DNA of 53,787 bases from Methanomassiliicoccales archaeon (GTDB lineage Archaea > Thermoplasmatota > Thermoplasmata > SG8-5 > JAGLSY01). The stretch is from contig DAOVGM010000022.1 of assembly GCA_030672365.1 (NCBI GenBank), positions 1 through 53,787 on the forward strand, written 5' to 3'. The notes beneath the pieces are model-generated. The model was not told the origin of the DNA and searched no databases. It saw nothing but the letters and a program-made list of their open reading frames with translations. Below, in pieces: positions 3,735-43,700 of this stretch. Each line of letters starts with the position of its first letter. Position 1 is the stretch's first letter. A program made the position numbers and the translations under genes.

Positions 3735-4046
3735 AAGTGCTAGGCACCGGACTGGTCGCCCGCACCTCATGCCGATGGTCAATGACCTTCTCGGTTCCGC
3801 CACCCCATGAGCGTTGGTAATATGCGGTTAAGCTGCTCCCGTCAGGGCCTCGCCCTTTCCCCGCAATCAAGAAGGACCACACCGCCCTCCGGCTGTGCGC
3901 GCCAATCACCTCCAACCCCGTGGGACAGAACCTCATAGTCGGGCACTGGTCCGACATAAAGCCGGTTACGCCGCATCCGGCCGTCACCCCCGCTAACGAC
4001 GATTTCGGTGTATAAGGGGACGCCGAGCCCCCCGGTTAGCCTAGCA
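3735..4046 (-). ncRNA. ffs: Signal recognition particle RNA (archaeal 7S/SRP RNA)
   Basis: The minus strand reads GCUAGGCUAACCGGGGGGCUCGGCGUCCCCUUAUACACCGAAAUCG, an archaeal Alu-domain 5' signature. It also contains AGG-CCC-UGAC-GGG-AGCAGC (helix-8-like) and a 3' GGUGCCUAGC that pairs with the 5' GCUAGGC. About 312 nt and GC-rich; the only ORF inside is an implausible 90-aa one. Confidence 0.85.
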
Positions 4047-4110: not shown

Positions 4111-5082
4111 TCACCGCCAGGTCACTTCAACATCATCCGTTCTGAACTTCTGGTCGACTCCCGAATCCTCGATTGAAGTCTCGATACCTGCCTTGTGCAT
4201 TATCAGGCCGGTCCAGGCTATCATCGCACCATTGTCAGAGCACAGATCACCGGGTGGAACGAACATGCTGGCCCCCCGCTCCTCCGCCATTATCCCGACC
4301 ATCTCTTGAAGACGGCGATTACATGCAACGCCGCCGCCAAGCAAGACCTCGTCGCGGTCGAGATGAGCCATCGCCCGCTCCGTGACCTCGATGAGCATCG
4401 CGAAGGTCGTTTCCTGAAGCGAATTGCAGACAACCGGCAATTCGGCTTTCGTGTTGAGCGCCGCTGTGAGTATGCCGGAAAACGCGACGTCCATTCCTTT
4501 GACCGAATAAGGGAGCGGCTGGTACTGGTCGGTTGTGGCGGCCAGTCTCTCGATTTCCGGGCCTGCGGGAAATGTCATGCCCTTCTCACGGCCGAACTTG
4601 TCCAACATATTACCGATGCCTATGTCGAGGGTTTCACCGAAGACGCGGTACTTGCCGTTGGCGAAGGCGATAACCTGTGTGTTGCCACCCGAAACGTATA
4701 ACAAAACCAGGTCCCCGCAGTCGAAAAGGCCCCTTCCAATCTCCAAATGCGCAACACAATGATTCACCCCCACGAGCGGCTTGCCCAAAGAGAGGGCCAG
4801 CGCCCGGGCAGATGTCGCGGCAGTCCGAAGGCAGGGGCCCAATCCCGGGCCTTGGGAGAACGCAATAAGGTCAATCTGGCTCTTGTCGATGCCCGCCTTC
4901 TCGATGGCTTCATTTATCACGCCGACGCCGTGCTCCGCATGGTGGTTCGCGGCCTCTCTCGGATGAATGCCGCCAACCTTCGGCACGTACATCTTCCACA
5001 AGTTAGCCAGTATCTCACAATCGCCATCAACAATCCCCACTCCGAAAGTGTGGGCAGTTCCCTCGATACCGAGACATATCAT
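4111..5082 (-). CDS. kae1: tRNA N6-adenosine threonylcarbamoyltransferase Kae1 (not fused to Bud32)
   Basis: 323 aa. MICLGIEGTAHTFGVGIV start, HHAEH metal-binding region, GPGLGPCLR and GGGVACN motifs of the Kae1/TsaD family. Confidence 0.92.
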   Translation of the reverse strand: MICLGIEGTAHTFGVGIVDGDCEILANLWKMYVPKVGGIHPREAANHHAEHGVGVINEAIEKAGIDKSQIDLIAFSQGPGLGPCLRTAATSARALALSLGKPLVGVNHCVAHLEIGRGLFDCGDLVLLYVSGGNTQVIAFANGKYRVFGETLDIGIGNMLDKFGREKGMTFPAGPEIERLAATTDQYQPLPYSVKGMDVAFSGILTAALNTKAELPVVCNSLQETTFAMLIEVTERAMAHLDRDEVLLGGGVACNRRLQEMVGIMAEERGASMFVPPGDLCSDNGAMIAWTGLIMHKAGIETSIEDSGVDQKFRTDDVEVTWR

Positions 5083-5184
5083 TGGTTGAGCATTCGTGGG
5101 ACGTTTAAAAAACTAATGCTCGCTCGGTCAACGCTTGACATGTCATATTAGGGTTTAAATAATAAATCAAATGATTATGGTTTT

Positions 5185-5940
5185 ATGGAAGATGAAGCTC
5201 CTGTTACTGTTTCAGTTAAGAAAATTATTGCCTTAATTCTTGTTGTTGTCATAGTCATCTCCGCTATCTGGGTGGTAAATATTTTGTTTACTTCAAGTGA
5301 CCCTCCGTGGATATTCTCTCACCCAGAGGTAACTGTCAATAAATCTTCAACCAACAATATTACTACTGAAACAATCATAGCGATGAATGATTGGGCGGAA
5401 AATTACCACGATAAGTATCATATTGACAGTATGTATATCACCATTACCACGGCGGTGGAGAACGATGAAACATATTTATTTTCCATATCAATTGATTTCA
5501 TTCCAGATTTAAATGTTTATACGTCAGAGAATGGGGGTGCTGGACCGATAACTGATGGTTTAATAAGTGTCTTCTCTGGCAACAGTATTACCTTATCAGA
5601 TGATTCAATCATATCAGAAATCACGAAAAATCGTGATTGGAAAATTACAGACAATGATCAAGTGTATTATATTGAAGAAGTAAGTGGTGTCCTTGAAGTC
5701 CACCTGCCTGGAACAGAATATGGTGAGTACTATTATCATGACAAATTATCCACTATTATTGAAAACGATGCTTGTCCAGTGGGCTATTTTGATGTTGATG
5801 GTGATTCATACCTGTCTGTTGGTGATTACTTTATTTCAGATGTTAGCAAGATAACTGAAGAATTTGATTATTTTGGATTTTATTATAAACTTAAATTTGG
5901 TGATCATTGGGAAAGCATCATAAAAAATGAAGGGGGCTAA
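5185..5940 (+). CDS. Hypothetical membrane-anchored protein (single N-terminal TM) in an AT-rich island
   Basis: 251-aa ORF with the hydrophobic segment IIALILVVVIVISAIWVVNILF. Rich in N/I/Y/D. Visibly lower G+C than its neighbours (not computed). I recognise no family. Confidence 0.6.
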   Translation: MEDEAPVTVSVKKIIALILVVVIVISAIWVVNILFTSSDPPWIFSHPEVTVNKSSTNNITTETIIAMNDWAENYHDKYHIDSMYITITTAVENDETYLFSISIDFIPDLNVYTSENGGAGPITDGLISVFSGNSITLSDDSIISEITKNRDWKITDNDQVYYIEEVSGVLEVHLPGTEYGEYYYHDKLSTIIENDACPVGYFDVDGDSYLSVGDYFISDVSKITEEFDYFGFYYKLKFGDHWESIIKNEGG

Positions 5941-5944
5941 ATTC

Positions 5945-6030
5945 TTTCGCTCCGAGCAGGCCTTTGGGGGTTGGGAAAGGCTAGCGGAGGAGCGGGGTGG
6001 GGGGATAATCAAAAGTTTGGGGCGGGCAGC
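5945..6030 (+). repeat. Family-A intergenic repeat, short form (A1)
   Basis: GCTCCGAGCAGGCC-TTTGGGGGTTGGG...AGCGGAGGAGCGGGGTGGGGGG...GGGGCGGGC. Lies between convergent genes. Confidence 0.7.
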
Positions 6031-15551: not shown

Positions 15552-16709
15552 TTATACTACCCTTTTCTTGGCGACCTTCTTTGGCTCGTCCTCGTCGCCG
15601 CCTTCTTCGCCGCCTTCCTCGCCGCCCTCGCCCTCTATCTTGGTTCCGCAGGCGTAGCACATGATGGCATCGTTTGAGAGCATCGTACCGCAGGACGGAC
15701 ACGGAATCTCTTCATCGCCGCCGGCTTCTTCCGATGCTGGCTCTTCTTCGCCACCTTCTTCGCCGCCCTCGCCCTCAATCTTGGTTCCGCAGGCGTAACA
15801 CATGACGGCGTCCTTGGAAATCATGGTGCCACAGGATGGACATGCGATTTCATCGTCGCCCTCCGCTGCCTCTTCTGCCGGAGCTTCTTCATCTGCTGGA
15901 GGTTCTTCATCTGCTGGAGGTTCTTCCTCGGCAGGGGCCTCTTCGTCCTCTGCCGGGGCTTCTTCATCTGGCGGAGCCTCTTCATCAGCAGGAGGTTCAT
16001 CTTCGGTAGGGGCTTCTTCATCTGCTGGCTCCTCCTCGGCAGGGGGGGCTTCGTCTTCCATCGGCGGCGGTGCCGGCGCGGCATCGATATCTGCCTTCAT
16101 GCCCCTGAGCGATTCCTCTTTCTCGATGAGCTGCTGCTCCTTCTCCATGAGGCGCTTGCCGTCCTCGATAATCTTCTCTTTGCTCTGATTGAGCTCCTCT
16201 TCCTCTCTGGCCAGCGCTTTCTCTCGCTCTACGGTCTCCTCGCCCTTTGCCACGAGTTTTTCGACGACCTCTTTCAGCTCATTGTAACCGGAAGCCATCT
16301 CCTCTTCCCTGGCGATTATTGCGTTTCTCTTCTCCGTAATCTCGCCTTCCAGCTTATTGGCTTCCTCCATTTTAACATAAATCTCTTCCTCTCGTGATGC
16401 AAGCTCCTTCTGCTTGGTCCCGATTTCCGCCTCTCTGGTCTCGAAACCGGATTCCAATTCCACGATTCTGGCCTTCTCCGCTTCGAAGGCCTGCTTCTCG
16501 GCATTGACCTCGTTCAGCTTGCTTTCAATCTCATCCTGTTTGGAACTGAGGTCTGCCTCTTTGGCCTCCACCGAGTTCTTGAGCTCCTCGATTTCGCGCT
16601 CTTTCTCGTTCAAAGTCTCTTCTTTGGCTCTCAGCTCTTCCTCTTTACCTTTAAACTGTTCGGCTTGCTTTTGCATTACTTCCCATATCGATGGTTCTTC
16701 TTCGCCCAA
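15552..16709 (-). CDS. Coiled-coil / acidic-repeat / double zinc-ribbon protein (partner of KaiC-like ATPase I)
   Basis: 385 aa. About 200 aa of heptad-rich E/K sequence, then PPADEEAP-type acidic repeats, then two tandem CPSCGTM[IL]S..A[VI]MCYACGTKIEGEGGEEGGEE units (CxxC-x10-CxxC). Confidence 0.75.
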   Translation of the reverse strand: MGEEEPSIWEVMQKQAEQFKGKEEELRAKEETLNEKEREIEELKNSVEAKEADLSSKQDEIESKLNEVNAEKQAFEAEKARIVELESGFETREAEIGTKQKELASREEEIYVKMEEANKLEGEITEKRNAIIAREEEMASGYNELKEVVEKLVAKGEETVEREKALAREEEELNQSKEKIIEDGKRLMEKEQQLIEKEESLRGMKADIDAAPAPPPMEDEAPPAEEEPADEEAPTEDEPPADEEAPPDEEAPAEDEEAPAEEEPPADEEPPADEEAPAEEAAEGDDEIACPSCGTMISKDAVMCYACGTKIEGEGGEEGGEEEPASEEAGGDEEIPCPSCGTMLSNDAIMCYACGTKIEGEGGEEGGEEGGDEDEPKKVAKKRVV

Positions 16710-16783: not shown

Positions 16784-17491
16784 TCAGTCTGTATCAAAGA
16801 TTGGCCCTAAGACGACCATACCGCCCTTTCCGACCTCGACCGCGTGTTTCTCCATACTATGTTGCGAAGCCCTCATCTTCTCGACCTGCAGGTATCTCAC
16901 GAGTTTACCGCGGCTTCTGTCGAGACCGAGCATCATGATTCCGTCGACCAGGAAACCCTCGTTTCCAAGAAGCTGGCTTTCGCCTCCGAGGCCCCTCTCC
17001 ATGACGACGAAGCAAATGAGGTTGTTGTCTCTCAGCATCTTGAAGAAGTAGAACATCCTCTTTCGCATCTGGGTCACGTCTTCCATGAGTGAATAGAGAG
17101 CACCCAGCGAGTCCAGCGCGAACACGGTGAACTTGTCGCCGTATTTCTTCTTGAAGTGAACTATCATCTTCTCGATAAATTTGAGATAGTCAGTCTCCTC
17201 GCCGTCCTCGATCACCCTGTCGATTTCACGCAGGTCAGTGAAGTCCGAAATCTGCATGTTTGGCGAAAGCTTGAATCCCAGACTCTCCATGTTGCGAACA
17301 TGACTCTGGACAGTCTCCTCCAATGTGGTATAGAGCCCAAAATCCCCTGTCTGTTCGAGATACTGCGACATGATGGTGTAGCAAAAGCTGGTTTTCATAG
17401 AACCAGGCGGTCCCGTGACCAGCACGATTTGCGGCGGTTCGATGTCCGTTTTGAACACCTTGTCAAGTCCTGATACAGAGTTTCTGAACAA
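16784..17491 (-). CDS. KaiC/RecA-like ATPase (single domain), variant P-loop
   Basis: 235 aa. GLDKV...IVLVTGPPGSMKTSF (Walker A with Met before Lys), Walker B FTVFALDSLGAL, and a C-terminal RYLQVEKMR-type KaiC-family segment. Confidence 0.85.
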   Translation of the reverse strand: MFRNSVSGLDKVFKTDIEPPQIVLVTGPPGSMKTSFCYTIMSQYLEQTGDFGLYTTLEETVQSHVRNMESLGFKLSPNMQISDFTDLREIDRVIEDGEETDYLKFIEKMIVHFKKKYGDKFTVFALDSLGALYSLMEDVTQMRKRMFYFFKMLRDNNLICFVVMERGLGGESQLLGNEGFLVDGIMMLGLDRSRGKLVRYLQVEKMRASQHSMEKHAVEVGKGGMVVLGPIFDTD

Positions 17492-22958: not shown

Positions 22959-23801
22959 TTAAAAGACCTCATCTATCTCCAGAGAAAAGTTGGCTGCCTT
23001 GGCTGAGTGTGTGAGCCAGCCGAGTGATATCACATCCGCGAACTTCGCGTATTGGGTGATGTTGTCGGGTGTGATGCCGCCCGAAATTTCTATCTCGATT
23101 TTGGGGTTTATTTCCCTGATTTTTGCTGCAGCCAGTGCCCCTGTGTCCGGGGTAAAATTGTCGAGCATTATTCTGTCGGGATGGGCTTTGGCGGCCTCGA
23201 TTGCCCCATCCATGTCGACGACCTCGACCTCCACCTTTTTGCCGGAGCCGGATGTTTTGGCTAAAGCCACCGCCTTAGTTATCGAGCCCACGATTTTGAG
23301 GTGGTTGTCCTTTATCAGAATCATGTCCCAGAGACCTTGCCTGTGGCTTACGCCGCCGCCGAGTATGACCGCTTTTTTCTCGTACTGGCGAAAGCCGGGC
23401 GTGGTCTTTCTGGTGGCTGATATCTGAACGTTCGGATTGATTTGTCGGCACCTGTCTACAAGGGCCCTGGTCTCGGTGGCTATCCCGCTCATCTTGCATA
23501 TGAAATTGAGGGTCAGCCTCTCGACTTTGAGGATTTGCTTTGCGAAGCCGGAGATTTCGAGAATCGTGGCACCGTTTCTGACTTGCTGGCCGTCGTTCGC
23601 TCTCGGGCTCGCGCGCAGGCCCTCATGCTCGAAGATGCGGACTGCCTCTTCGAGGCCTGCCAGAATTGAGTCTTCTTTCGCGATGATTATTGCTCTGGCC
23701 TCCTGATTTTGGATGACTGCTTCGGACGTCGCGTCGCCGTCTCCCAGGTCTTCTGCAAGATATTCGTAGGGCTCGCTCATGGTGATTACATATCCTCTCA
23801 T
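22959..23801 (-). CDS. nadC: Nicotinate-nucleotide pyrophosphorylase (quinolinate phosphoribosyltransferase)
   Basis: 280 aa. DLGDGDATSEA, ATRKTTPG, LGGGVSHR, ILIKDNH and MLDNF motifs of NadC. Confidence 0.9.
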   Translation of the reverse strand: MRGYVITMSEPYEYLAEDLGDGDATSEAVIQNQEARAIIIAKEDSILAGLEEAVRIFEHEGLRASPRANDGQQVRNGATILEISGFAKQILKVERLTLNFICKMSGIATETRALVDRCRQINPNVQISATRKTTPGFRQYEKKAVILGGGVSHRQGLWDMILIKDNHLKIVGSITKAVALAKTSGSGKKVEVEVVDMDGAIEAAKAHPDRIMLDNFTPDTGALAAAKIREINPKIEIEISGGITPDNITQYAKFADVISLGWLTHSAKAANFSLEIDEVF

Positions 23802-24403
23802 GTATTTAGAATTTGCTCGATGTGGCCTTTTGACCTGGCTATGGTGATGGCCGCGTCGATGTCTGGAGTTTTGGTACGTTTTGTTGTGCTGGATTCGTCC
23901 ACTATTTCAACGATGCTGAACAGTTGGCTCACCTTGTTGAGTATTTGATTGCGGGAATCGGGAGCGCCGTGCCCTATTCTGAGCCGCGAGCGCTCGAAAC
24001 AATAGGCCTCCAGCATGTCCTTGACTATCTTGATGGCTTGCTCAGTCGAGTTCGCCTGCAGGGCTTCGATGACCTCTCCCTCCACGACGACCGCGATGCC
24101 GGGGTATTTTCCGGGGTCCGCGCCGATGACCAGTTCTTTGAAGGGGCCGTCGCCGCAGAGCATCTGGATTGCTTCCCTGACTCCCCGATAGACGTCGGTC
24201 ACATTCACTTTGGGGCTGAAATCGACTTTGTCAAAATCCTCCTGGCCGGTCATGACAACCCCGATGTCTAAATTCACCGGCTCGTCGAAATTGAGGCTCC
24301 GAAACTCGAGTTTTCTGGCTTTCAGAACTTTCACGAGGTCGAAATAGAGGCGGGAGTTCGTGGTCAGTAGACCAATGATCTTATCATATCTCGCATTTCC
24401 CAA
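23798..24403 (-). CDS. Hypothetical protein with a putative RNase H-fold (RuvC/YqgF-like) C-terminal half
   Basis: 201 aa. VIGADPGKYPGIAVVVEG resembles the first strand and catalytic Asp of RuvC-like nucleases. DIDAAITIA resembles the terminal catalytic Asp helix. Pattern recognition only. Confidence 0.45.
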   Translation of the reverse strand: MGNARYDKIIGLLTTNSRLYFDLVKVLKARKLEFRSLNFDEPVNLDIGVVMTGQEDFDKVDFSPKVNVTDVYRGVREAIQMLCGDGPFKELVIGADPGKYPGIAVVVEGEVIEALQANSTEQAIKIVKDMLEAYCFERSRLRIGHGAPDSRNQILNKVSQLFSIVEIVDESSTTKRTKTPDIDAAITIARSKGHIEQILNT

Positions 24404-24431: not shown

Positions 24432-24971
24432 TCAACCCATTATTACCGTGAAATCGAACTCGCACATCGGGCACTTGTCCGGCTGGCCCTCGAGAATCGC
24501 ACCGCAGAGCTGGCAGTATTCCACGTCCGAGATTTCGTCGTCCTCGTCGTCGCTGAACAGCCTGAATATGTGCTCTCTCGTGCCGTCCCAGACCCCCATG
24601 TCGCCGTCCCAGTCGTCCCCGATTTCGCCGAACTCCACCTCGATGTCCTTCATGACCTCTTCGGCCTTGTACTTCATCTTTGTCGTCGCCTTCCCCAGAT
24701 AGACGATAGCCAGATAGAAATTCTCACCGAGCTCGATCATGATGTTCTTGTTCTCGAATTCAAGATTCTTGAGGCTGAACTGCCCCTGCCCGAAAGTGTC
24801 CTTCACAAATGCCTGGATAGCGGTCAGCATGCCGACGGTCAAGTCGTAATCGACCTGCACGTTCTCCTCCAGCGTGTGGTGGCCGATAAGGCATCCGCTC
24901 TTGTGAACTAGGAATGCCTCTTCTATTGCTGGTGTGTCTCTCGTTAACATCATCACCATTATTCTGCCCAT
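24432..24971 (-). CDS. Roadblock/longin-like alpha/beta domain protein with acidic linker and C-terminal zinc ribbon
   Basis: 179 aa. The N-terminal AFLVHKSGCLIGHHT...MLTAIQAFVKDTF...YLAIVYLG segment shares the FL[LV]x[RK]xGxxIxHHT motif with the C-terminus of the 28717-30012 protein. The ribbon is CQLC-x10-CPMC. Confidence 0.55.
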   Translation of the reverse strand: MGRIMVMMLTRDTPAIEEAFLVHKSGCLIGHHTLEENVQVDYDLTVGMLTAIQAFVKDTFGQGQFSLKNLEFENKNIMIELGENFYLAIVYLGKATTKMKYKAEEVMKDIEVEFGEIGDDWDGDMGVWDGTREHIFRLFSDDEDDEISDVEYCQLCGAILEGQPDKCPMCEFDFTVIMG

Positions 24972-25005: not shown

Positions 25006-25425
25006 TTACGGTTCAAAACCATGCTGCTCCAACCGCTCCGAGCAGGCTCTGGGGGGGGTTGGGCATCTGTCGTGACCACTGGCGCGACAGATCATGTTGG
25101 AATGTGAGGCAATCCAACATGACGGCCAGTGGCCCGACATAGGGTTCCCCTCGGGCTCTTTCAACCAAAATGCAACTCCTCGTGAGTTCAGCTTCACACA
25201 TCTCCGGGGCCCACCCCCGGCTGCGTTTCCGGGGCCGGCTTCGTAGTGCTTTCTGAAGCGGGTGACGTATCCAGCGATTTTGTTTCGCATTTGCACGGTC
25301 GTGACGTCTGTCATCTCAGCTACCATCTTCTTGTTGTGCTGGTAGTCGTCCGTGAACTTCTCTGGATACCGCTTCACCAACTCGATAGCTACTCTTTTGA
25401 TATAGGTCGGCCTTATATTTCCCAT
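25006..25425 (-). CDS. rps17e: Ribosomal protein S17e, with a ~75-residue C-terminal extension read through repeat A6
   Basis: [38 protein letters not shown]...[11 protein letters not shown] is canonical S17e (normally about 60-70 aa). The ORF has no stop until 25006 and runs across the family-A repeat. Confidence 0.85.
25033..25160 (+). repeat. Family-A intergenic repeat (A6), 5' module plus hairpins H3 and H4, lacking the usual 3' G-rich module
   Basis: CCGCTCCGAGCAGGCTCTGGGGGGGGTTGGGC, then ATCTGTCGTGACC-ACT-GGCGCGACAGAT, then CATGTTGGAATGTGAGGCAATCCAACATG. Confidence 0.75.
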
Positions 25426-25586: not shown

Positions 25587-27848
25587 ATGGCTCTGTTCGG
25601 CAAGAAGAAGAAAAAGAAAGATTCTGAAGCAGAAGATAAAATCGGTGACATGGGGGCGCTGACCGACGCGAAATCCGGCTTCCATTTTGGCAGGGACAAG
25701 GACGAACCAGAGGAAGAACCGACAGAAGAAGAGTTTTATGATGACGAAGACGACGATGTAGACGGAGTAGTTTGCCCGGTTTGCGAAGAATCTTCCCCGC
25801 CCGGAACCGAGGAGTGCGTCCATTGCGGCAACGCGCTGGATGATTCATTGGGCTTCCTGGGTGCAGAGCCTGAAGAGGAAGACGTGCCCGAGCCCGAAGA
25901 ATCGGACATCAAAGATGTCACCGAAGTCGAAGCTGAGTCAGAGGTTTTAGAGGATTCTGTAGAAGAAGTTGTTGAGGGAGAGCCAGACTTTGTAGAAGCT
26001 GAGACTCCCGACGAGGAAGAGGTCGTCGAGGAAGAAGAAATCGAATATGTCGAAGAGCCGGTAGAAGAAGCTTCTATCGGTGAGGAACCGGTAGAAGAAG
26101 AGTTGGAATTCATGCTCGAGACTGAAGACGTGCCTGAACCAGAAGAGCCAGCTGCTCCAGTCATGTCCGACAAGGAGAGAAAAGATGTAGAAAAGGCGGT
26201 CAATAAGAAAATCAAGTCACTGTACAAGGATTTGAAGAAGGGTAAAATCACGCAGGATGATTATGACCAACAAGTTCGCGATGTCAAGATTTCATTAGGA
26301 TTGCTGGCTCCCGAGCCGGTAGAAGAGTTTGTTGAGGAGGACATCAAAGATGTCACCGGTATCGAAGATACCACCGATATCGAAGAGACTCCACCGCCGC
26401 CTTCTGAACCGGAGCCAGAACCTCCAGCTGTTGAGGAAGTTGTGGAAGAGGTCGCCGAGGAAATTATCGACGAGCCAGATGAGGACATCGGAGATGTCAC
26501 CGGTATCGAAGATGCCACCGATATCGTACTCTCCGAAGAGCTCGTTCGCGCCGAGGGCATCGAAGGTATCACCGAAATCGAGGAGGAGTTCGAACTCGAT
26601 GCGGAGGACCTTCTGGGAGAGGTTGTGGCAACAGAGAATGGACTCGAAAACGGTTTCGACATCGATGATATTTTGCCTCCCGAGCTTTTGATTCTCGAAG
26701 AGCTGGAGTTTCTTCCTGAAGAGGTCGTGGAGGAAGAGACGGGGCCTGCAGTAGTACCTGATGGGAAAGTCGAGGCGGAGCCGGAAAAGGTCGGGTTCAT
26801 GGAAACCAGAAGAAAGCGGAAGGAGAAAATCACCAAACTCGACGTAAGAGAGGCCGAACTTGAAACTGTAGAGACTAAGCTGGAGGAAAGAAAGGAGGAG
26901 CTTGAGGAGGAAGCCACAAAAGTCGAAGAGGACATCATCAGGGCTCAGACTGAGTTGCAAATCGCCCAGACTAAAACCCAGGTGCTGGATGCCCGCGAAG
27001 CCGAATTGAGCCGGCGCGAGCAGGAGCTCGTGGCCGGTCAGGAAGAATTGGATGCGAAGAAGGAAGAGGTTCGCGAGATATCTAAGCGAATGAAGGGCAG
27101 AAAAGAGGAACTGGATACCCGCGAAGAAACCATGACGTCCAGAGAGGACCAGTTCAATGAAAGGCAGAGAATTCTTACCCAGCGAGAGGATGATTTCCGT
27201 GAGAAGGAAGCAACTTTCAGGGAGCAAAGAGAGGTAATTCTTGAAAAAGAGAGGGGGCTTAAGGAGAAGGCAAGCGAGCTGAATACCCAGGAAGACGAGC
27301 TGGACGAGGAAAGGATGGCTGCCAGACGGCGTGCTAGTGAACTCGACGATGTTCGCAGGGACCTTGATGCCAGGGAGCGCGAATTCGAGGGCCGTGAGAG
27401 GGAGATCAACGAGAATGAAGAGGATATCCAGCAACGCGAGGAATCGCTTTCGACGAAAGAGGCAGACCTAAACAGGATGAGGGAAGATGCCATTGCCCTC
27501 GAGAACGAGTTGAACACCAAGGGCGGAGAGCTGGCCGGCCAGGAAGCGGACCTCAGGCAGAGAGAGGATAGGCACGAGGAATGGAAGAAGCGGCTGGAAG
27601 AGAGAGAGGAGGATTTGGCCACGCGGAGCAACGACCTCGAAAGTAAGCTGGCTAATTTACGTGCTCAGGAAAGAGACGTCGAAGACAGGAAAGGCCGAAT
27701 CAAGGAAAAGGTCATGGAAATCAAGGAGCTGGAAAGTGATACTCTGCGCAGAAAGAAGGACGTCGACAAGATTGAGCTCTTGTTGATCGAGAAGGAAACC
27801 GAGTTATTCGAGAAGGAGCAGGATATCGTCAGGAAGGCCGCGAAATAA
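25587..27848 (+). CDS. Zinc-ribbon / hyper-acidic / long coiled-coil protein (cassette gene 1)
   Basis: 753 aa. CPVC-x10-CVHC ribbon near the N-terminus, about 350 aa of D/E-rich sequence with three DI[KG]DVT[GE][IV]E repeats, and a C-terminal ~330-aa heptad-rich region with recurring [RK]EEEL/REDD units. Confidence 0.8.
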   Translation: MALFGKKKKKKDSEAEDKIGDMGALTDAKSGFHFGRDKDEPEEEPTEEEFYDDEDDDVDGVVCPVCEESSPPGTEECVHCGNALDDSLGFLGAEPEEEDVPEPEESDIKDVTEVEAESEVLEDSVEEVVEGEPDFVEAETPDEEEVVEEEEIEYVEEPVEEASIGEEPVEEELEFMLETEDVPEPEEPAAPVMSDKERKDVEKAVNKKIKSLYKDLKKGKITQDDYDQQVRDVKISLGLLAPEPVEEFVEEDIKDVTGIEDTTDIEETPPPPSEPEPEPPAVEEVVEEVAEEIIDEPDEDIGDVTGIEDATDIVLSEELVRAEGIEGITEIEEEFELDAEDLLGEVVATENGLENGFDIDDILPPELLILEELEFLPEEVVEEETGPAVVPDGKVEAEPEKVGFMETRRKRKEKITKLDVREAELETVETKLEERKEELEEEATKVEEDIIRAQTELQIAQTKTQVLDAREAELSRREQELVAGQEELDAKKEEVREISKRMKGRKEELDTREETMTSREDQFNERQRILTQREDDFREKEATFREQREVILEKERGLKEKASELNTQEDELDEERMAARRRASELDDVRRDLDAREREFEGREREINENEEDIQQREESLSTKEADLNRMREDAIALENELNTKGGELAGQEADLRQREDRHEEWKKRLEEREEDLATRSNDLESKLANLRAQERDVEDRKGRIKEKVMEIKELESDTLRRKKDVDKIELLLIEKETELFEKEQDIVRKAAK

Positions 27849-27949
27849 CGTTGGCTTGTTCCCCGCACCCGCAAAAATCATTTATATATCTTTATCATAT
27901 CACTTCCAAGTCTCACTTGATGTAACATCAAGATTATTGGGGGGCTTTA

Positions 27950-28693
27950 ATGAACGGAGAAGCAGAAACGACAGATTCAGGTACGAAGAAAAATGAGAGA
28001 ATACCTACCTACGTTATCGGGTTGGATGACATCCTGGAGGGCGGCGTTCCGAAGGACTACATAGTTCTAGTTTGCGGTCACGCCGGAACGATGAAATCGT
28101 CCGTGGGATACAGCATCATCTACAACGGCGCCAAAAACAGCAATTTGAAAGCCATTTACCTAACGCTGGAACAGGGGAAAGAGAGTATCATAGAACACAT
28201 GGAAAAACTGGGAATGCCGTCGACAGGACTGGACAGTCTCGTTGTCGTCGACCTTTCTAGGGTCAGGAAAGACATCACCGAAGACAAGACCAAACCGCAG
28301 AACGTCGACTGGCTCAAGTCAATCATCGGTGTGCTCAGGAACTACAAGGAGAGATTCGGATGTGAAGTCCTTGTGTTGGACTCTCTGGCTGCCCTTTATG
28401 CTCTTACGACCTTCAAAAACCCGCGTGGTGAGTTGTTCCACTTCTTTGAACAGATTAGAGATCTGGGTGTCACGACATTCCTCATCTCTGAGATGCCGAC
28501 CGACAGAGAAGTTTTCGGTCTCTACGGAATCGAGGATTTCCTTTCAGACGGTATCATTCACCTGAAGGTCGAGTTCACGGACCAGGGCGCGAACCTGTAT
28601 CTGGGTGTTGTGAAAATGAGAAAAACGCATCACTCCAGAAAATACATGCCTTTGATATTCGAGAACGGAGCCTTTGAGGTAGTTAGACAGTAG
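27950..28693 (+). CDS. KaiC/RecA-like ATPase (single domain), variant P-loop (cassette gene 2)
   Basis: 247 aa. GLDDILEGGVPKDYIVLVCGHAGTMKSSV (Walker A with Met before Lys), Walker B EVLVLDSLAAL, and YLGVVKMRKTHHS, a KaiC-family C-terminal motif. Confidence 0.85.
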   Translation: MNGEAETTDSGTKKNERIPTYVIGLDDILEGGVPKDYIVLVCGHAGTMKSSVGYSIIYNGAKNSNLKAIYLTLEQGKESIIEHMEKLGMPSTGLDSLVVVDLSRVRKDITEDKTKPQNVDWLKSIIGVLRNYKERFGCEVLVLDSLAALYALTTFKNPRGELFHFFEQIRDLGVTTFLISEMPTDREVFGLYGIEDFLSDGIIHLKVEFTDQGANLYLGVVKMRKTHHSRKYMPLIFENGAFEVVRQ

Positions 28694-28716
28694 TCAAATT
28701 GACAAGGGGTAACCTG

Positions 28717-30012
28717 ATGGCTAAGAAAAAAGGTGGTTCAAAGAAAAAGAGAACGTCTTCCAAATCGAAGAAGAAGGGAGCGCCTAAATCGAAGGCGAGG
28801 CAAAAGGCAAAGAAGGAAGAACCGGTAGTTGCGCCGGAGCCGGTCGAAGAGCTTCCTCCCCCGCCGCCACCGCCCGAGCCAGAGGAACCCGACATCAAAG
28901 ATGTCACCGGCATCGAAGATGCCACCGATATCGAAGATATCACCGATACCGAAGGTGTCACCGAAATCGAGCCCGAGGAAGAAGAGTCGAAACTCAGTGA
29001 TGCTGTTTCGGCTGTCATAGGTGATGATGATGCGAAGCCAAAATCCAAGGAGAAGAAGTCGCCGACCCAGCAAAAGAGAGAAAAATTAATTCTCCAGTGG
29101 ACTGCCGAGGGTTACAATGTCGACCACCTTGAAGACCTTTTGGCCAGCGGTGTGAAGAAGGGCGTGAAAAAGGCCTTCGACGATTTTGAAAAGGGCATCA
29201 GCAGAATTGAGGAAATCAAGGAGGAATTGGACGGTGCCAACATCGCCGACGTCGAGGCAGAGTATAACGATTTAACGGCCATGTTATCATCCCCCGGAGA
29301 CATCGGGAACATTGAGACCGCTTTCGTTAACTTGAAAGCCCGGATCAAGGCCAAGGAGTTGGAGAAGGAACTGGACGGCATGAAACTGCCGCAGTTTAAA
29401 GATCAGATTGACGAAATCCGTGAAATGCTGGCTGACCCAGATAGAGTCGACGAAGCCGAGAAGGCCATCGAAGACTTCAAGAAGGGTTATAAGGAAGCTT
29501 ATTTCGAAGATAGTGTGGCCTCGCTTGTTACGGGCCCGGAAACCGCAAAACCGAAGGCGGCGAAACCGACTGCTCCGAGACCCGGCGCGGTAAAAACCCC
29601 GATGACAGTCCGCGATATATTCTTGCTTTACAGAAACGGCAAGTTCATTTCCCACCATACTGGCCGTGTCGTTCCGAAGGAGGAGCAGGAGCAGTTGTTC
29701 GCAGACCTGAAGACCGGCCGCAACTACCTCAAATCACCGAATTACAAGCCCAAAAAATTGAATGTCATCTCTGTCAACAACAGGAAAATCCTCGTTCAGG
29801 GCGGACTGTTTACCGTCGTGGTCATCATCGCCGAGGGCGAGGTCAATCCGTGGACAGAAAAAATCGTCGGAAAGGTTCTCGGCCTCATGGAGAAGGAGGA
29901 CCGGGTTCCGCTGCAGAACTGGAACGGCGACGTTGCCTCGCTGAAGAGTGCCGGCAAGTACATGACCGCCCTTCTGTACGCGACGATGAAGCTCGGGAAA
30001 AAGGCAGATTAG
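28717..30012 (+). CDS. Lys-rich / acidic-repeat / helical protein with a C-terminal roadblock/longin-like domain (cassette gene 3)
   Basis: About 431 aa from the ATG at 28717 (the ORF opens at TTG 28699). Order of segments: KKKGGSKKKR..., PPPPPPP, DIKDVTGIEDATDIEDITDTEGVTEIE, helical middle (LILQWTAEGYNVDHLEDLL...), and C-terminal IFLLYRNGKFISHHTG...FTVVVIIAEG domain. Confidence 0.75.
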   Translation: MAKKKGGSKKKRTSSKSKKKGAPKSKARQKAKKEEPVVAPEPVEELPPPPPPPEPEEPDIKDVTGIEDATDIEDITDTEGVTEIEPEEEESKLSDAVSAVIGDDDAKPKSKEKKSPTQQKREKLILQWTAEGYNVDHLEDLLASGVKKGVKKAFDDFEKGISRIEEIKEELDGANIADVEAEYNDLTAMLSSPGDIGNIETAFVNLKARIKAKELEKELDGMKLPQFKDQIDEIREMLADPDRVDEAEKAIEDFKKGYKEAYFEDSVASLVTGPETAKPKAAKPTAPRPGAVKTPMTVRDIFLLYRNGKFISHHTGRVVPKEEQEQLFADLKTGRNYLKSPNYKPKKLNVISVNNRKILVQGGLFTVVVIIAEGEVNPWTEKIVGKVLGLMEKEDRVPLQNWNGDVASLKSAGKYMTALLYATMKLGKKAD

Positions 30013-30084
30013 ATTTGTGGCTTCCAACAGTTAATTTTAGATATGAAAACTCACATATGCCACAATATACAGTGAGGGAAAATT

Positions 30085-30408
30085 ATGGATGCTGCAGAGG
30101 TTGTTCTCGGATTTTTGAAGTTGGCAGGCATAGTATTGGCCGCCGCCGGAGTTATTCTTGCATTGACAAAGGGACGGAAAGCTTTGTCGTTCACAGGCGG
30201 GGGCATCATCGGAAAGGTCATGCTTTACACGATGGTTGCCACGATAATATATCTCATCGCATTCATTCTGGATGCCACCAGCGTGGTCTGGGGTGACTTC
30301 TTTGACGCTTTGAAAACAATCGTCCTATTCGGTCTGGGTGTCTGCTTTTTCGCAGTTCTCTGGGAAATAATAGAGCATCTGGAGGATTTTAAGAAATATG
30401 TCGGGTGA
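30085..30408 (+). CDS. Small integral membrane protein, about 3 TM (cassette gene 4)
   Basis: 107 aa with three hydrophobic stretches (LKLAGIVLAAAGVILAL, VMLYTMVATIIYLIAFIL, IVLFGLGVCFFAVLW). A GAGGG lies upstream of the ATG. Confidence 0.6.
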   Translation: MDAAEVVLGFLKLAGIVLAAAGVILALTKGRKALSFTGGGIIGKVMLYTMVATIIYLIAFILDATSVVWGDFFDALKTIVLFGLGVCFFAVLWEIIEHLEDFKKYVG

Positions 30409-30412
30409 TTGA

Positions 30413-30682
30413 CTGGATTCTAATGCTTTCATTTCAGATATTGAGGAAAAACTCACGCCCATCGCCCCCATAATCAAGTTCGCAATAAAAAAGCAGCTGG
30501 AGGACATCGGTGCGGACCGCGACAACCTGACTCCGGAGCAGGCCATCCAGTTCATAAATAACATGATTGAGGCCTTGGGTCTCTTCCTCGGCAACAGGGG
30601 GGCTGGGGAATCGAGAAAGTTCATGATGAGTGCCCTCAGAAAATATGCCCCAGATTATTTCGAAGAGCATTCTTTGATATAG
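30413..30682 (+). CDS. Protein-like 89-codon ORF without a canonical start (cassette gene 5?)
   Basis: Stop-to-stop open frame LDSNAFISDIEEKLTPIAPIIKFAIKKQLEDIGADRDNLTPEQAIQFINNMIEALGLFLGNRGAGESRKFMMSALRKYAPDYFEEHSLI. The first internal ATG is at codon 51. An in-frame ATG-TCG-GGT-GAT-TGA lies immediately upstream (30398-30412). Confidence 0.45.
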   Translation: MDSNAFISDIEEKLTPIAPIIKFAIKKQLEDIGADRDNLTPEQAIQFINNMIEALGLFLGNRGAGESRKFMMSALRKYAPDYFEEHSLI

Positions 30683-32655: not shown

Positions 32656-34209
32656 ATGAGTAAAAAACTGACAATTGAAGATATGCAGAAGCTTGCAGAG
32701 TCGAGAGGTGGGAAGTGCTTATCAAAGGAGTACGTAAACACTAAAAGAAAAATTATCTGGCAATGTGGCAATGGTCATACATGGGAAGCCTCACCTCAAA
32801 GTGTTAAACAAGGTGGCTGGTGTCAATATTGTGCTAACATTCAGTTAAGCAAAGAGAGACGATTGGATTTTAACATTGTTTTACATAAAATCAAAGAACT
32901 GGACGGAGAATATATTTCAGGAAAATATAGGAATAATCAATCAAAATTATTTATTCGATGCAAAGAAGGCCATGAATGGCAAACAAACTACGCTAATATT
33001 CAGAACGGGAGATGGTGTCCAATATGCGCTAGAATTAAGCAAGCAGATCGACAAAGGGGTAATATTGACGAGATGAAAGAAATTGCGAAACAAAGAGGTG
33101 GCATATGCATCTCAGAGAAATATGTAGATTCTCACACACCCCTCAACTGGAGTTGTGCTGAAGGTCACGAGTGGTTTTCATCACCTCTTTCTGTAAAAAA
33201 TCAAGGAACATGGTGTCCAGAATGTAATATTTTCATCGGTGAAAAGATTTGCAAAGAAATTTTCACTATATTATTTAATAAAAAATTTCGAAAAGCAAGG
33301 CCAGAATGGTTAATTAATCCAAAAACAGGCAGATGTATGGAACTCGACGGATATAATAAGGAATTAAAATTAGCTTTTGAACACCATGGAATTCAGCATT
33401 ATTTTCAAGATGAAAAGCATTTTCACAAAGTTAATAAATTCAGAGACCAGCAAGAAAGAGATATTATCAAAAAGAAATTATGTGCTGAACAGAAAGTCAA
33501 ATTAGTGGTTATACCATATTATGTTCACCATAATCGGAAGTTGCAATTTATTATAGACCAGTGCAAATCATATGGTTATAAAATTGATAATATTCCCCTT
33601 GAACTTTATGATTTTAAAAATCTCTCTATCTATAAAAAAGAACGACTTAAAGAAATAAGGGAAATCGCAGAGTCTAAAGGTGGTAAATGTTTAAATGAGT
33701 CGTTTATAGACTATCAAACAAAAATGAAATTTCAATGTGAAAATGGGCACATATTTTCAATGTCAAGTGCACAAATAAAATATCATAAAAGCTGGTGTCT
33801 TGAATGTGCTGGCATAAAACGATATACAAAAAATGATATGATAAAGTTGTCAAAATCACGGAATGGAAAATTCTTGTCTGATGACTTTACTAATGTTAAT
33901 GAAATCCATGAATGGCAATGTTCAAAGGGTCACCGATGGAAAACCCGGCCTGGGAATATAATCAAAGGCCACTGGTGTCCTCATTGTGCGGGTCAAGGCA
34001 AACTATCAATTGAATTGATGAAGCAAATAGCCAGTGAACGAGGGGGAGAGTGCCTTTCAGATGTTTATGTAAATGCAAAAACAAAATTACATTTTAAATG
34101 TGAAAATGGGCATGAATGGTGGGCACAACCGTACCATATCAAAAAAGGTGCTTGGTGTCATTATTGTTCAGGAAGACGCAAGTGGCCACCAAGCGTCCCG
34201 AGCAGGTAG
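32656..34209 (+). CDS. Six-fold zinc-ribbon repeat protein with a central PD-(D/E)xK-like nuclease core (AT-rich island)
   Basis: 517 aa. Six units of the type GGxC[LI]S..Y.....(W/F)xCxxGHxW......[IV]xxGxWCxxC, arranged 3+3 around ELDGYNKELKLAFEHHGIQHY...VKLVVIPY. The ribbons resemble the 'probable zinc-ribbon' (DUF4379-type) domain. Visibly AT-rich. The last ~10 codons and the stop lie in repeat A7. Confidence 0.75.
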   Translation: MSKKLTIEDMQKLAESRGGKCLSKEYVNTKRKIIWQCGNGHTWEASPQSVKQGGWCQYCANIQLSKERRLDFNIVLHKIKELDGEYISGKYRNNQSKLFIRCKEGHEWQTNYANIQNGRWCPICARIKQADRQRGNIDEMKEIAKQRGGICISEKYVDSHTPLNWSCAEGHEWFSSPLSVKNQGTWCPECNIFIGEKICKEIFTILFNKKFRKARPEWLINPKTGRCMELDGYNKELKLAFEHHGIQHYFQDEKHFHKVNKFRDQQERDIIKKKLCAEQKVKLVVIPYYVHHNRKLQFIIDQCKSYGYKIDNIPLELYDFKNLSIYKKERLKEIREIAESKGGKCLNESFIDYQTKMKFQCENGHIFSMSSAQIKYHKSWCLECAGIKRYTKNDMIKLSKSRNGKFLSDDFTNVNEIHEWQCSKGHRWKTRPGNIIKGHWCPHCAGQGKLSIELMKQIASERGGECLSDVYVNAKTKLHFKCENGHEWWAQPYHIKKGAWCHYCSGRRKWPPSVPSR

Positions 34210-37428: not shown

Positions 37429-37537
37429 CGCCATCGAGCGGGCTCGAACCGCTGACCTTCCGGTCTCCGCGTCTGATGGCGAGCTTGTCTCGCCGTCAGT
37501 TAACAGCCGGATGCTCCACCTGCTGAGCTACGATGGC
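37429..37537 (-). tRNA. tRNA-Asn (anticodon GUU) with a ~36-nt intron at the canonical 37/38 position
   Basis: The minus strand reads: GCCATCG-TA-GCTC-AGCAGGTG-GAGC-A-TCCGG-CTGTTA, then the intron ACTGACGGCGAGACAAGCTCGCCATCAGACGCGGAG, then A-CCGGA-AGGTC-AGCGG-TTCGAGC-CCGCT-CGATGGC-G. All four stems pair and the intron contains its own hairpin (BHB-compatible). Confidence 0.88.
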
Positions 37538-40767: not shown

Positions 40768-43700
40768 ATGAGAAGAGGATTTACCATTGCACTCGTATTG
40801 TCTTTGATTGTTTCCGGATTCGGAGTCATAGGTCTGGCCATAACCGGCTCGGCCAGCAATGATAACTCTGAGGTCATGGCGCCTGTCGCTCCACACGCGC
40901 CGATAAGGATTGATGGGGATGCGGATTTCTTAACCGTTGACGGTGTGACAAATAATGCTACTGGCAATGGTACAGTTTGGAATCCTTGGATAATTGAGAA
41001 CTGGGACATCAATGGAACTGGGGTTGGTTATTGTATTTATGTCGGGAATACGACAGATTATTTTGTTGTGAGGAATTGTAGTTTGCAAAATGCCAGCGGT
41101 GTTGAAAGTTTTCCTTATTACAGAAATGCTGGATTGCATTTATACAATAGTACAAATGGATTAATTAGAGATAATAATGTTTCATTCAACGGTATTTGCC
41201 TATATGTCCAGCAATCTTCCAATAATTCAATTATTAATAATACAGCTATTTCCTTCAAGCAACCCCTGAATAGGGGTGTCTTTCTCTATGGGAGCGAAAA
41301 TATTAGTGTAAAAAACAATAAAATATCAAAACAAGATGAATGCATTTCAATTTTTGGAAACTTTAATAATATCACAAACAACACCGTATTTGATGCGGCC
41401 TTTGGATTTAAACTTGAAGAATCCAATAACAATTCTATTATTAATAACAGTATCTCTGAATGTGAACTGGTGGGTGTTTGGTGTGGTGGACTTATCGATG
41501 GTTCTAACAACAACACCATAATTCATAATTACTTCATTGACAATGGCAACAACGCCATGGATTTCGGTAATAATTTCTGGGACAGTGGCTATCCCTCCGG
41601 GGGCAACTACTGGGCGGATTATACTTGGGTTGATCTCTTTCACGGCCCGGACCAGAACCTCACTGGCTCTGATGGAATCGGCGATACAAATTACACATTT
41701 GCCACAGGTGTTGACAATTATCCTTTGTTGTTTGAAACAGATTCTCCATTCGCCCTCGACCAATCCCCGAATGGGACGGGGATTTCGATTGCAACAAGTA
41801 TTACAATTTCCTGGAATGAAACAATGAACTGGACATCCGTTGAAAATGCGTTCAATTTTACAGATAATATAACTGTTTGGAGTTCTGCAGATGGGGCTTG
41901 GATGTATAATTCAACCACTAATGTTTCTACCTTCAATCCAAATTCGGACTTGGCCTATAATACAACCTACTGGGTGAATGTTAATATTACTGCAACAGAC
42001 GTTGCTGGTAATGCATTGGATCAAGACAAAAACGGAACTGGTGGATATTGGCCAGTGGATGTCTTATCATGGAGTTTCACGACCATGTTGGAACCGGAAT
42101 CCATACAGCCATTCATCAATTTCACATCACCCAACGGCACCTACGAGCCCCTCGGCGTCAACTTCACAATCGAATGGAACGAGACGATGAACTGGGCGTC
42201 TGTCAACGCCTCGTTCAATTATACCGATAATGTTACTGTCTGGACATCTGCAAACGGGACATGGACTCACAACTCCACATCCAACGTTTCTGTATTCGAC
42301 CCGGCAGCCCTTTTAGATTACGGGATGACATACTGGCTCACCGTAAACACGACCGCTACCGACGTCGCCGGCAATCCTCTCGCCGCCAACTTCACCTGGA
42401 ATTTCACCACAGAGCTGGCCCCGCCGATAGTGATGCTCACCAGTCCGGCTGATGCCGTTGTCGAAGTCAACCCTTACAACAACATCACTATCGTGTTCAG
42501 CAACGAGATGAACACGACGAGCGTCGAGGCCGCGTTTTCATACACGAACGGAACTGCCAGCTACAATCAGACCAACGGCACGTTCACTTGGACTGCCGGG
42601 AACAAGACGGCGTCCTTCGACCCGACAGACGATTTGGAGTTGAACATGACCTACAATTGCAGTCTGAATGGCTCGCTGGCTGCCGATATTTACGGAAAAC
42701 TCCTAGACGGAAATAAGGATACAGTCGGAGGGGACAATTACACGTGGAATTTCACTACCTGGCCTCACACTCCCCCGCCCGAGGTCAACGCCACCTATCC
42801 GTTCAACGGTGCAATTAATATCAATGTCAACACGTACATCATGCTGGCGTTCGACTGGCCGATGAATAATGCCATTACCGAGAGCGCGTTCAGCATGACA
42901 GATGGAAGCACCGTTATCGATGCAAACGACGGCGACTTCACTTGGTCGATGGGCAACAAGCTGATGACCTTCCAGCCGGACGTTTATTTGCTCTACAATA
43001 CGACCTACACGGTGCGGCTCCTCGGAACTGCGGAGTCCGTTTCACCGTACGAGGCCTCGCTTGACGGCGACTCCGATGGTGTGGCGGAGGGGAGCCCCGC
43101 AGACGATTTCGTCTTCAACTTCACGACGTCTCTGGTCCCGCCCACTATCCTGTTGACCGAGCCGGAAAACGGTGCCGTGAACGTCGAAACAACTCTGAGC
43201 CAGATAACCTTCGAGTTCAGCGCGGAGATGGATAATGTCTCGGTTCAGAATGCTATGTTGTTTACACCCACCCTTCCGCATAATAAAATGTGGTCTATGA
43301 GTAACACGTTGCTAACCTTGACACCAACTGTGAATTTGTCATACAATGTGACGTACATCATATCATTTGATGCGAACATCGCGAAGGACCTGGCCGGTAC
43401 GAAATTGGACGGAAACGGTGACGGTGCCTACGGCGACGATTTCCAGCTATGGTTCACGACGGAGATGGCGCCGGACACCTCCATTCCGACGATCGTGAGC
43501 GTGTTTCCGCCAGCCAACAGGACCGACGTTCCAGTTCACACTTACATCAGGGTTACTTTTAGCGAACCGATGGACAATGCCAGTATGCTACAGGCTTTCA
43601 CACTTAGAAATGATACCAGCACAATTCTGGGAAATCTCTCTTGGAATGAGGATTATACCCGTTTTATATTCCATCCGGCTCAAAATCTTTCGGCTAATAC

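Follow-up and report, generated by a model that had tools for sequence, protein, structure and literature searches.

In the 53,787-nt contig DAOVGM010000022.1 of a Methanomassiliicoccales archaeon (assembly GCA_030672365.1), referred to below as the window, five open reading frames (ORFs) on the plus strand at 25587-30682, designated g1 to g5, include a conserved gene pair: g2 codes for a single-domain KaiC-type ATPase with an aberrant but complete nucleotide site, and g3 codes for a partner protein which combines a known longin fold with an undescribed helical repeat. We read the g2-g3 pair as a nucleotide-dependent switch and adaptor module, and assign this reading a probability of roughly 0.4. 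A first-pass annotation of the same DNA had described five co-directional ORFs, all of which were found in place, and had grouped them into a five-gene cassette. Four of the five ORFs are clearly real genes. Of the cassette, the linkage of g2 to g3 stood, while g1 and g5 accompany the pair in one subclade only and g4 lacks a homologue in the related loci; the unit is therefore a two-gene core, g2-g3, with lineage-specific accessories. The five genes are as follows.

25587-27848 (+): g1, accessory scaffold protein of 753 aa (ORF, composition).
27950-28693 (+): g2, single-domain KaiC-family (RecA-fold) ATPase of 247 aa, core component 1 (Pfam).
28717-30012 (+): g3, partner protein of 431 aa when read from its ATG, core component 2 (synteny with g2); an alternative TTG start at 28699 would extend it to 437 aa.
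30085-30408 (+): g4, protein of 107 aa with three predicted transmembrane (TM) segments (hydropathy).
30413-30682 (+): g5, 89-codon frame coding for an accessory helical protein (conservation in relatives).

The linkage of the two core genes was assessed in a g3-anchored survey of sixteen genome loci and three contigs, with flanks retained in about 17 distinct genomes (Thermoplasmata metagenome-assembled genomes, MAGs). In every g3 locus that retains its flank, a g2-type ATPase gene lies directly 5' of g3 on the same strand, separated from it by a gap of 5-43 nt, and the encoded ATPase, 73-88% identical to g2, carries the same Met in its Walker A motif (Met-type, see below). Conversely, ATPase relatives of 76-82% identity (loci L001 and L004-L006) are followed by a g3 homologue as the next gene. 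The pair was found in several Thermoplasmata orders, between which the surrounding genes differ; the closest loci belong to MAGs labelled Thermoplasmata, Thermoplasmatota, Methanobacteriota, Proteinoplasmatales and Methanomassiliicoccales. The first-pass annotation had made its proposal depend on synteny of the ATPase orthologues with both the coiled-coil gene (g1) and the gene of the roadblock-like protein (g3). The latter proved to be linked in every g3 locus with a retained flank, but the coiled-coil gene is linked in one subclade only.

This subclade, in which the gene order g1, g2, g3, g5 is observed, comprises the window, L008-L010, L018, L023 and, as a partial locus, L024. Synteny in L008-L010 is uninformative, because the whole region from nadC to a CBS-domain gene, housekeeping genes included, is collinear with the window. 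In L018 and L023, by contrast, g1 and g5 flank the pair while all other neighbours differ from those in the window; the ATPases of these two loci are 73-77% identical to g2, and the g3 proteins about 44% to that of the window. Membrane proteins occupy the positions of the accessory genes in other subclades. The UBA147/UBA280 group (Methanomassiliicoccales archaeon MAGs) shows the arrangement of a divergent giant surface protein, g2, g3, a one-TM protein and a four-TM protein, and another subclade has a divergent gene for a polytopic protein with Zn ribbon, TPR and HHH domains beside the pair; membrane neighbours recorded outside the window's subclade, located downstream of the pair or divergent from it, are C7 (one TM), C2 (four TM) and C14 (polytopic, TPR), in addition to the surface protein C3. 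Genes of DUF835 proteins are divergent from the pair in L020 and L021, that in L021 coding for a V4R-DUF835 protein.

The g2 protein matched the Pfam KaiC profile PF06745 with an E value of 4.7e-45 and 154.2 bits (cut-off 26.6), its residues 18-244 covering profile positions 1-226 of 231, and aligned end to end with the CI domain of KaiC (PDB 8zn5, E 4.5e-28, full length) as well as with the archaeal single-domain proteins PH0186, PH0284 and SSO2452. Its Walker A motif reads GHAGTMKS, with Met48 in place of the second conserved Gly; together with the Pfam match, this bears out the earlier description of a KaiC-like single-domain ATPase with a variant P-loop. LEQ, with Gln75, takes the place of LEE in the catalytic motif; Walker B reads LDS and the arginine finger KMR. 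About 120 relatives share 50-90% identity with g2, all of them from Thermoplasmatota-type sources. In an alignment of 118 sequences, down to 50% identity, the Walker A Met was kept in 117, and GxAGTMKS, LEQ, DS and KMRxTxH were invariant or nearly so. The protein thus has neither the canonical Walker A GxxxxGK[ST] nor the paired catalytic glutamates (EE). Still in place are Lys and Ser of Walker A, Asp of Walker B, the first of the catalytic Glu residues and the Arg finger. Invariance of the deviant motifs in the 118 sequences indicates that purifying selection acts on what appears to be a working nucleotide site, and since this site is complete and tightly conserved despite its deviations, g2 is probably a slow ATPase or an ATP-dependent switch rather than a dead domain.

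Within the known KaiC family, g2 represents a new subfamily. Its scores were below the cut-offs of the KaiC clock models NF006799 and TIGR02655 (111 vs 408 bits and 61 vs 546 bits) and of the NCBIfam models KaiC_arch_3 (TIGR03880; 107.9 bits, cut-off 249.45), KaiC_arch_4 (TIGR03881; 92 bits, cut-off 247.8) and ArlH (FlaH; 37.4 bits, cut-off 215). Archaellum genes (ArlI, ArlJ, archaellins) were found neither in the window neighbourhood nor in the related loci for which Pfam annotation was returned, and Pfam detected no archaellum component, KaiA or KaiB among 13 nearby ORFs of the window, in keeping with the first-pass view that the locus is neither an archaellum locus nor a Kai clock.

The g3 family comprises approximately 58 clusters at 90% identity, all of them annotated as hypothetical and none with a Pfam domain. 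An AlphaFold2 (AF2) model of g3, based on 54 sequences, showed residues 1-114 to be disordered and two confidently predicted domains to follow, with predicted local distance difference test (pLDDT) values as given below.

28717-28824 (+): polybasic N-terminal tail MAKKKGGSKKKR..., 47% Lys plus Arg (composition; AF2 disorder).
28873-28973 (+): acidic hexapeptide repeat DIKDVT-GIEDAT-DIEDIT... (repeat family D1).
29062-29529 (+): helical domain, residues 116-271 (AF2 pLDDT >90).
29605-30000 (+): longin-fold domain, residues 297-428, beta-beta-alpha-beta-beta-beta-alpha-alpha (AF2 pLDDT >90).

The anatomy proposed at first pass, i.e., a Lys-rich N-terminus, a poly-Pro stretch (a P7-8 proline run), an acidic repeat, a helical middle part and a roadblock/longin-like C-terminus, was recovered in all its parts. 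The N-terminal sequence MA(K/R)(K/R)(K/R) is kept in 17 orthologues, and the invariant residues of the C-terminal domain include a FISHHT motif and W-x-G-D; LSDAVSxV is a further conserved motif. A Foldseek search of the PDB with the C-terminal domain identified AP sigma subunits, zeta-COP, Sec22b, Ykt6 and VAMP7 at a probability of 1.0, with target-normalised TM-scores of up to 0.72 (Sec22b 0.71-0.72) and E values of 1e-4 to 3e-3, whereas Roadblock, MglB and LAMTOR were weaker matches (0.37-0.44). Both the topology and the structural similarity of the model place this domain within the longin fold, so that of the two names offered earlier longin is the better label. At the sequence level, g3 did not match the Pfam families Longin (PF13774) and Robl_LC7 (PF03259) even at E values up to 10, and a profile search of PDB sequences found nothing.

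The helical domain consists of one full and, as judged by eye, one partial copy of a repeat of approximately 95 aa. Modelled alone, it reached a pLDDT of 91.5 and had no structural neighbour in the PDB (Foldseek, best E ~1); the search thus speaks neither for nor against the idea of a DEATH-like adaptor, which Makarova et al. 2017 reportedly put forward. When a profile of the helical and longin regions of g3 was searched against 1.84 billion representative proteins, 948 proteins were retrieved at E <=1e-3. The first ~100 profile positions (g3 residues 116-210, 29062-29346) recur in tandem in hundreds of proteins, reaching 29-30 matches in two of them (3,090 and 3,143 aa) and 2-11 copies in many others, often combined with C-terminal Zn ribbons; proteins P0179, P0180, P0181, P0231 and P0240 are examples. 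The repeat, in which the motif 'W..(D/E)GY.V..LE' leads into three longer helices, has no model in Pfam or NCBIfam and is a candidate for a new domain family. Multi-repeat proteins had no KaiC neighbour in the one locus examined.

The architecture of g3 itself, one repeat plus one longin-like domain, was seen in 27 of the 146 top representatives. Two loci show the repeat in other contexts. A 778-aa protein of L020 (814-3147, minus strand) has the unusual architecture of repeat, Zn ribbon, DnaA-type AAA+ domain (bacterial-type, with Hda lid; Pfam E 2.8e-59) and DUF835. Since DUF835 has been described as an inactivated KaiC-like domain (Galperin et al., PMC5847659), this fusion independently connects the repeat with KaiC-like domains for a second time. 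In L027 (648-4936), a small protein with repeat and longin-like domain is encoded between a GTPase-like P-loop protein (motifs GDRASGKTT ... DVSGED ... AKHD) and a HerA-like ATPase, both assigned by eye; these neighbours may represent a different nucleoside triphosphatase (NTPase) partner for the same adaptor architecture.

Members of the longin/roadblock superfamily form dimeric platforms which regulate P-loop NTPases, as in the pairs MglB-MglA, Ragulator-Rag and SRX-SRbeta. Like these, g3 contains a longin domain and is genetically coupled to a P-loop NTPase; it differs in that this NTPase is a RecA/KaiC-type ATPase and not a Ras-like GTPase, and in that its host is a Thermoplasmata archaeon instead of an Asgard archaeon or a eukaryote. 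Compared with the archaeal single-domain KaiC-like ATPases (ArlH, PH0186/PH0284, SSO2452, GvpD), g2 likewise consists of one RecA-fold domain of ~240 aa, but has the invariant GxAGTMKS in place of GxxGxGK[ST] and LEQ in place of LEE, and its partner is distinguished by the helical repeat and the longin fold. With cyanobacterial KaiABC, g2 shares homology to KaiC CI over its full length, and a slow, switch-like turnover of ATP seems plausible; having one domain and not two, it is without the CII autokinase domain. Unlike DUF835 (PF05763), to which it does not belong, g2 has kept its catalytic residues. The pairing of g2 with a lineage-specific non-enzymatic partner is in line with the proposal, attributed to Makarova et al. 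2017 in PMC5847659, that the KaiC-like ATPases of archaea are hubs of signalling, with many adaptor domains; the logic of hub and adaptor is thus not new.

From the folds, the motifs, the strict linkage of g2 and g3 and the subclade-restricted linkage of g1 and g5, we infer a physical interaction of the proteins, slow hydrolysis, tethering to a membrane and an output through a scaffold. The g2 protein, presumably hexameric like other family members, would act as a slow nucleotide switch, and g3, by analogy with the longin/roadblock proteins, would be its dedicated adaptor or regulator, acting via the longin domain. The helical repeat module would join the longin domain to the disordered arm with its acidic stretch and polybasic tip, and through this arm the complex could be anchored on an anionic surface formed by membrane lipids or by nucleic acid. 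In the subclade of the window, g1 (a coiled-coil scaffold with polybasic N-terminus and acidic arm) and g5 (a small helical cofactor) may have been recruited to the module, and the nucleotide state of g2 would control assembly or remodelling of the g1 scaffold. The membrane neighbours in other subclades, the hydrophobic/polybasic N-termini and the membrane protein g4 suggest an association of the module with the membrane and thus give indirect support to the membrane-tethered ATPase considered at first pass. In its most specific form, namely that the longin protein regulates the RecA/KaiC-type ATPase and that both together control a membrane-bound coiled-coil scaffold in Thermoplasmata, the proposal is decidedly unlikely.

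Several points weigh against the switch and adaptor reading, in which everything beyond fold and synteny is what we infer. ATPase relatives of 68%, 62% and 53% identity (L007, L002 and L003, respectively) have no g3-like longin or helical domain encoded within 7 kb, which suggests that ATPases of the g2 clade can work without g3. The longin domain of g3 is a divergent member of a larger 'FLIYKDGRLI.H...WDGD' family, and a KaiC-like ATPase was present within 6 kb in 0 of 80 metagenome loci of this broader longin-like family; the link to KaiC is therefore specific to the g3 subfamily. Since most subclades lack g1 and g5, an output through a scaffold cannot be what the core pair does in general. 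Polybasic tails, the HHH_5 domain of one g3 lineage and an ATPase of the RecA superfamily would fit a DNA-bound role equally well. As to novelty, literature searches on KaiC with roadblock or longin in archaea found nothing relevant, and neither the g2-g3 pair nor a protein joining such a helical repeat to a longin fold was found described in the literature searched; a prior listing in Makarova et al. 2017 is possible.

The accessory genes bear on the question of how far the functional unit extends. The g1 protein has the N-terminus MALFGKKKKKK, a CxxC-x10-CxxC Zn ribbon (residues 63-80, 25773-25826), which is an insertion specific to this genome, a disordered acidic region (residues 40-405, 366 aa, 38% Asp plus Glu, net charge -120) and a charged, Pro-free coiled coil (residues 406-753, 348 aa, 26802-27845), whose last ~90 residues are highly conserved; ribbon, hyper-acidic region and coiled coil, as claimed at first pass, are thus evident from the composition. 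Orthologues of g1 lie directly 5' of the ATPase gene in L008-L010 (44-45% identity), and in L018 and L023 the similarity extends over the C-terminal 270-340 residues (29-32% identity, E ~1e-23). The g4 protein shows hydropathy peaks at residues 6, 50 and 78, consistent with the approximately three TM segments noticed before. It had no homologue in any related locus (tblastn) and is a singleton cluster in a collection of 15 billion proteins; g4 is apparently a private, recent addition of this genome. Scans of g1, g3, g4 and g5 against Pfam, NCBIfam and PADLOC returned nothing meaningful, and none of the four matched a characterised complex in these databases or among PDB sequences, in agreement with the first-pass annotation, to which no described system of such a composition was known.

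Candidate TATA boxes, recognized by sequence inspection, precede g1, g2 and g4, suggesting that the g1-g5 region gives rise to three transcripts. The one assigned to the core pair is given here.

27881-27888 (+): TATA-box-like TTTATATA, candidate promoter of the g2-g3 transcript, ~60 nt 5' of the g2 ATG (sequence inspection).

An alternative which we consider possible, if rather unlikely, is that only g2 and g3 are functionally linked, and that g1, g4 and g5 are neighbours by shared ancestry, their association being an artefact of collinearity. The collinearity of L008-L010 throughout the region, the candidate promoters of g2 and g4 with the separate transcripts they suggest, the uniqueness of g4 to this genome and the lack of g1 and g5 in most g2-g3 loci all agree with such a view, as does the position of g5 only 7 nt from a downstream AAA_18 kinase gene in the window's clade. 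However, it does not account for L018 and L023, where g1 and g5 flank the pair despite otherwise different neighbours. It is also at odds with two resemblances between g1 and g3. The first is the acidic repeat, which the first-pass annotation had noticed in both proteins and which is real at the DNA level, with 96% identity over 47 nt (26340-26386 vs 28891-28937) and a period of 18 nt, corresponding to a hexapeptide; as the orthologues in L008-L010 lack the repeat, it is apparently the result of a recent intragenomic exchange. The second is the N-terminus of the g3 orthologue in L001, MGLFGRKKKKK, which has the N-terminal motif of g1. Moreover, the window contains a second Met-type ATPase with a coiled-coil partner, encoded 10 kb upstream.

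16784-17491 (-): second KaiC-like ATPase, 235 aa (Pfam KaiC, E 1.9e-30).
15552-16709 (-): 385-aa protein directly 3' of the second ATPase (Pfam Zn_ribbon_3, DZR).

The second ATPase has the Walker A motif GPPGSMKT, again with Met, and is 32% identical to g2. Its 385-aa neighbour is made of the ingredients of g1, with two Zn ribbons, a coiled coil and a region rich in acidic residues and Pro. This parallel module supports the notion that Met-type KaiC ATPases may be functionally tied to acidic coiled-coil proteins. A search for the second ATPase yielded nothing beyond a short contig with an identical protein; two further ATPase paralogues of the xMKS/LEQ type are encoded in L021.

The anionic surface proposed for the arm of g3 could be nucleic acid, and we regard as unlikely, although it deserves consideration, that the system is a DNA- or chromatin-associated machine, in which the ATPase would work on DNA, g3 and g1 would bind nucleic acid by way of their polybasic tails or, in some orthologues, of an HHH domain, and an SMC-like coiled coil would bridge or organise DNA in repair, segregation or replication control. 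The g3 orthologue of L001 contains an HHH_5 domain (E 2.6e-14), the divergent neighbour C14 ends in HHH_5, the L020 protein fuses the helical repeat to a DnaA-type ATPase domain, the Lys/Arg-rich N-termini are conserved, and the coiled coil of g1 gave weak matches to SMC and JetC. Among the PDB relatives of g2 is also SSO2452, a KaiC-like paralogue from Sulfolobus, whose group (crenarchaeal KaiC-like RadC paralogues) is presumably linked to DNA repair. The SMC and JetC scores, however, fall well short of the cut-offs and are such as any coiled coil would give, HHH_5 occurs in one g3 lineage only, no nuclease, helicase, topoisomerase or recombinase is conserved beside the pair, and the recurrent neighbours are membrane proteins.

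These membrane neighbours, together with the best structural matches of g3, which are longin domains of eukaryotic coat adaptors and SNAREs, could also point to a membrane-remodelling or trafficking-like system of the wall-less Thermoplasmata, in which longin domain, N-terminal motif and coiled coil would build an assembly that shapes membranes, with the KaiC-like ATPase as the motor for disassembly or recycling. The N-termini MALFGKKKKKK and MGLFGRKKKKK agree with this, and we take their common motif 'M-x-L-F-G-K/R' to resemble the N-termini of ESCRT-III proteins. Nevertheless, such a system is very unlikely: Pfam recognized no Snf7 or PspA domain in g1, neither a Vps4-type AAA+ ATPase nor a small GTPase is conserved nearby, and the longin/roadblock fold is ancient and widespread, so that trafficking is not implied by the fold alone. 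A mobile element or anti-phage defence island is effectively excluded, since the PADLOC matches obtained, g1 with JetC and g2 with mad8 (E 4e-4 to 2e-3, 16-17 bits), are very weak and due to coiled-coil or P-loop composition, G+C throughout the region does not depart from the genome average, neither an integrase nor repeats flank the pair, and the pair is located among housekeeping genes and apparently inherited vertically across orders.

Among the candidate signalling ATPases of archaea, those of the KaiC-like type have expanded most and are least understood, and partners are known for very few of them. The g2-g3 pair provides a clean, strictly linked combination of ATPase and partner with a diagnostic signature (GxAGTMKS plus LEQ), and g3 extends the idea of NTPase regulation by longin/roadblock proteins to a RecA-type ATPase and to a non-Asgard archaeal lineage; it also brings in a widespread helical repeat. 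If the proposal is true in its most specific form, with the longin protein regulating the ATPase and both controlling a membrane-bound scaffold, the pair would represent a class of NTPase-longin switches not recognised before and found beyond Asgard archaea and eukaryotes, which makes use of a new, spectrin-like repeat of ~95 aa that also forms giant rods of up to ~30 repeats. A nucleotide switch by which a coiled-coil scaffold is organised would add a new element to what is known of cell organisation in archaea, here in an uncultured lineage. Should the pair not be a scaffold switch, the two protein families still merit annotation.

The smallest of the accessory genes, g5, had been listed as an 89-codon protein-like ORF; it is a real gene, because it is conserved over all 89 codons in relatives (40-76% amino-acid identity; 40-48% in L018 and L023). 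The family comprises 18 clusters, and g5 has no Pfam domain and, in a profile search, no relative in the PDB. In the window, codon 51 of g5 is the first to read ATG, GTG or TTG, and codon 1 follows immediately upon an in-frame TGA. This first codon is ATG in L018 and L023, TTG in L024 and CTG in the window, L008, L009 and L010, and 12 of 17 other aligned g5 sequences start with M-D-S or M-N-S at this position. A conserved element precedes it.

30404-30409 (+): GGTGAT, Shine-Dalgarno-like, 3 nt 5' of the g5 CTG and overlapping the g4 stop codon (conservation).

The GGTGAT element is invariant in four genomes, in which the next three bases vary (TGA, TCT, ACA, AAG). Most likely, g5 initiates at the CTG, led by this putative Shine-Dalgarno sequence. 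Initiation at CTG would explain why the exact g5 protein has no 100% match in the protein collection; gene callers shorten g5, calling 69 aa in L008 and 76 aa in L010. The ATG at 30398 was ruled out as the start of g5 by an in-frame TGA four codons on. A fusion of g4 and g5 by frameshift was likewise rejected, as relatives are without g4 and their g5 genes all start at the equivalent codon.

Upstream of g1, a gene for a further longin-like protein is located on the opposite strand.

24432-24971 (-): paralogous longin/roadblock-like protein, 179 aa, with C-terminal Zn ribbon (g3 longin hidden Markov model, HMM, E 5e-6).

The L010 orthologue of this protein matched the g3 longin HMM with an E value of 2e-9, and the protein, which belongs to the broader 'FLIYKDGRLI.H...WDGD' family, clusters with g3 in BLAST searches; its score with Robl_LC7 was 15.9 bits, below the Pfam cut-off of 23. 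Next to it, a 201-aa protein with a weak match to DUF460 is encoded at 23798-24403 (minus strand). Both genes are conserved upstream in close relatives, and a homologue of the 201-aa protein is encoded directly 5' of the ATPase in the more distant L001. The ORF of ribosomal protein S17e (25006-25425, minus strand) comprises 139 aa, whereas its counterparts in L008 and L010 have 63; lacking a stop after '...HYEA', the frame continues for 76 codons, which could be due to a lost stop codon or to an assembly error.

Between the CBS-domain gene and a histone-deacetylase gene, an island of low G+C content (32656-34209, plus strand, G+C 0.34-0.43) codes for a 517-aa protein composed of repeated DUF4379 treble-clef Zn-finger units. 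Since the same spot harbours restriction-modification genes in L010 and nothing in L008 and L009, it looks like a variable insertion hotspot. Two RNA genes on the minus strand were identified by Rfam, namely the archaeal signal recognition particle RNA at 3738-4046 and a 109-nt, presumably intron-containing tRNA at 37429-37537, which was missed by ARAGORN. Low-G+C stretches are present at 5001-6000 and 41001-42000 (0.38, compared with about 0.52 elsewhere).

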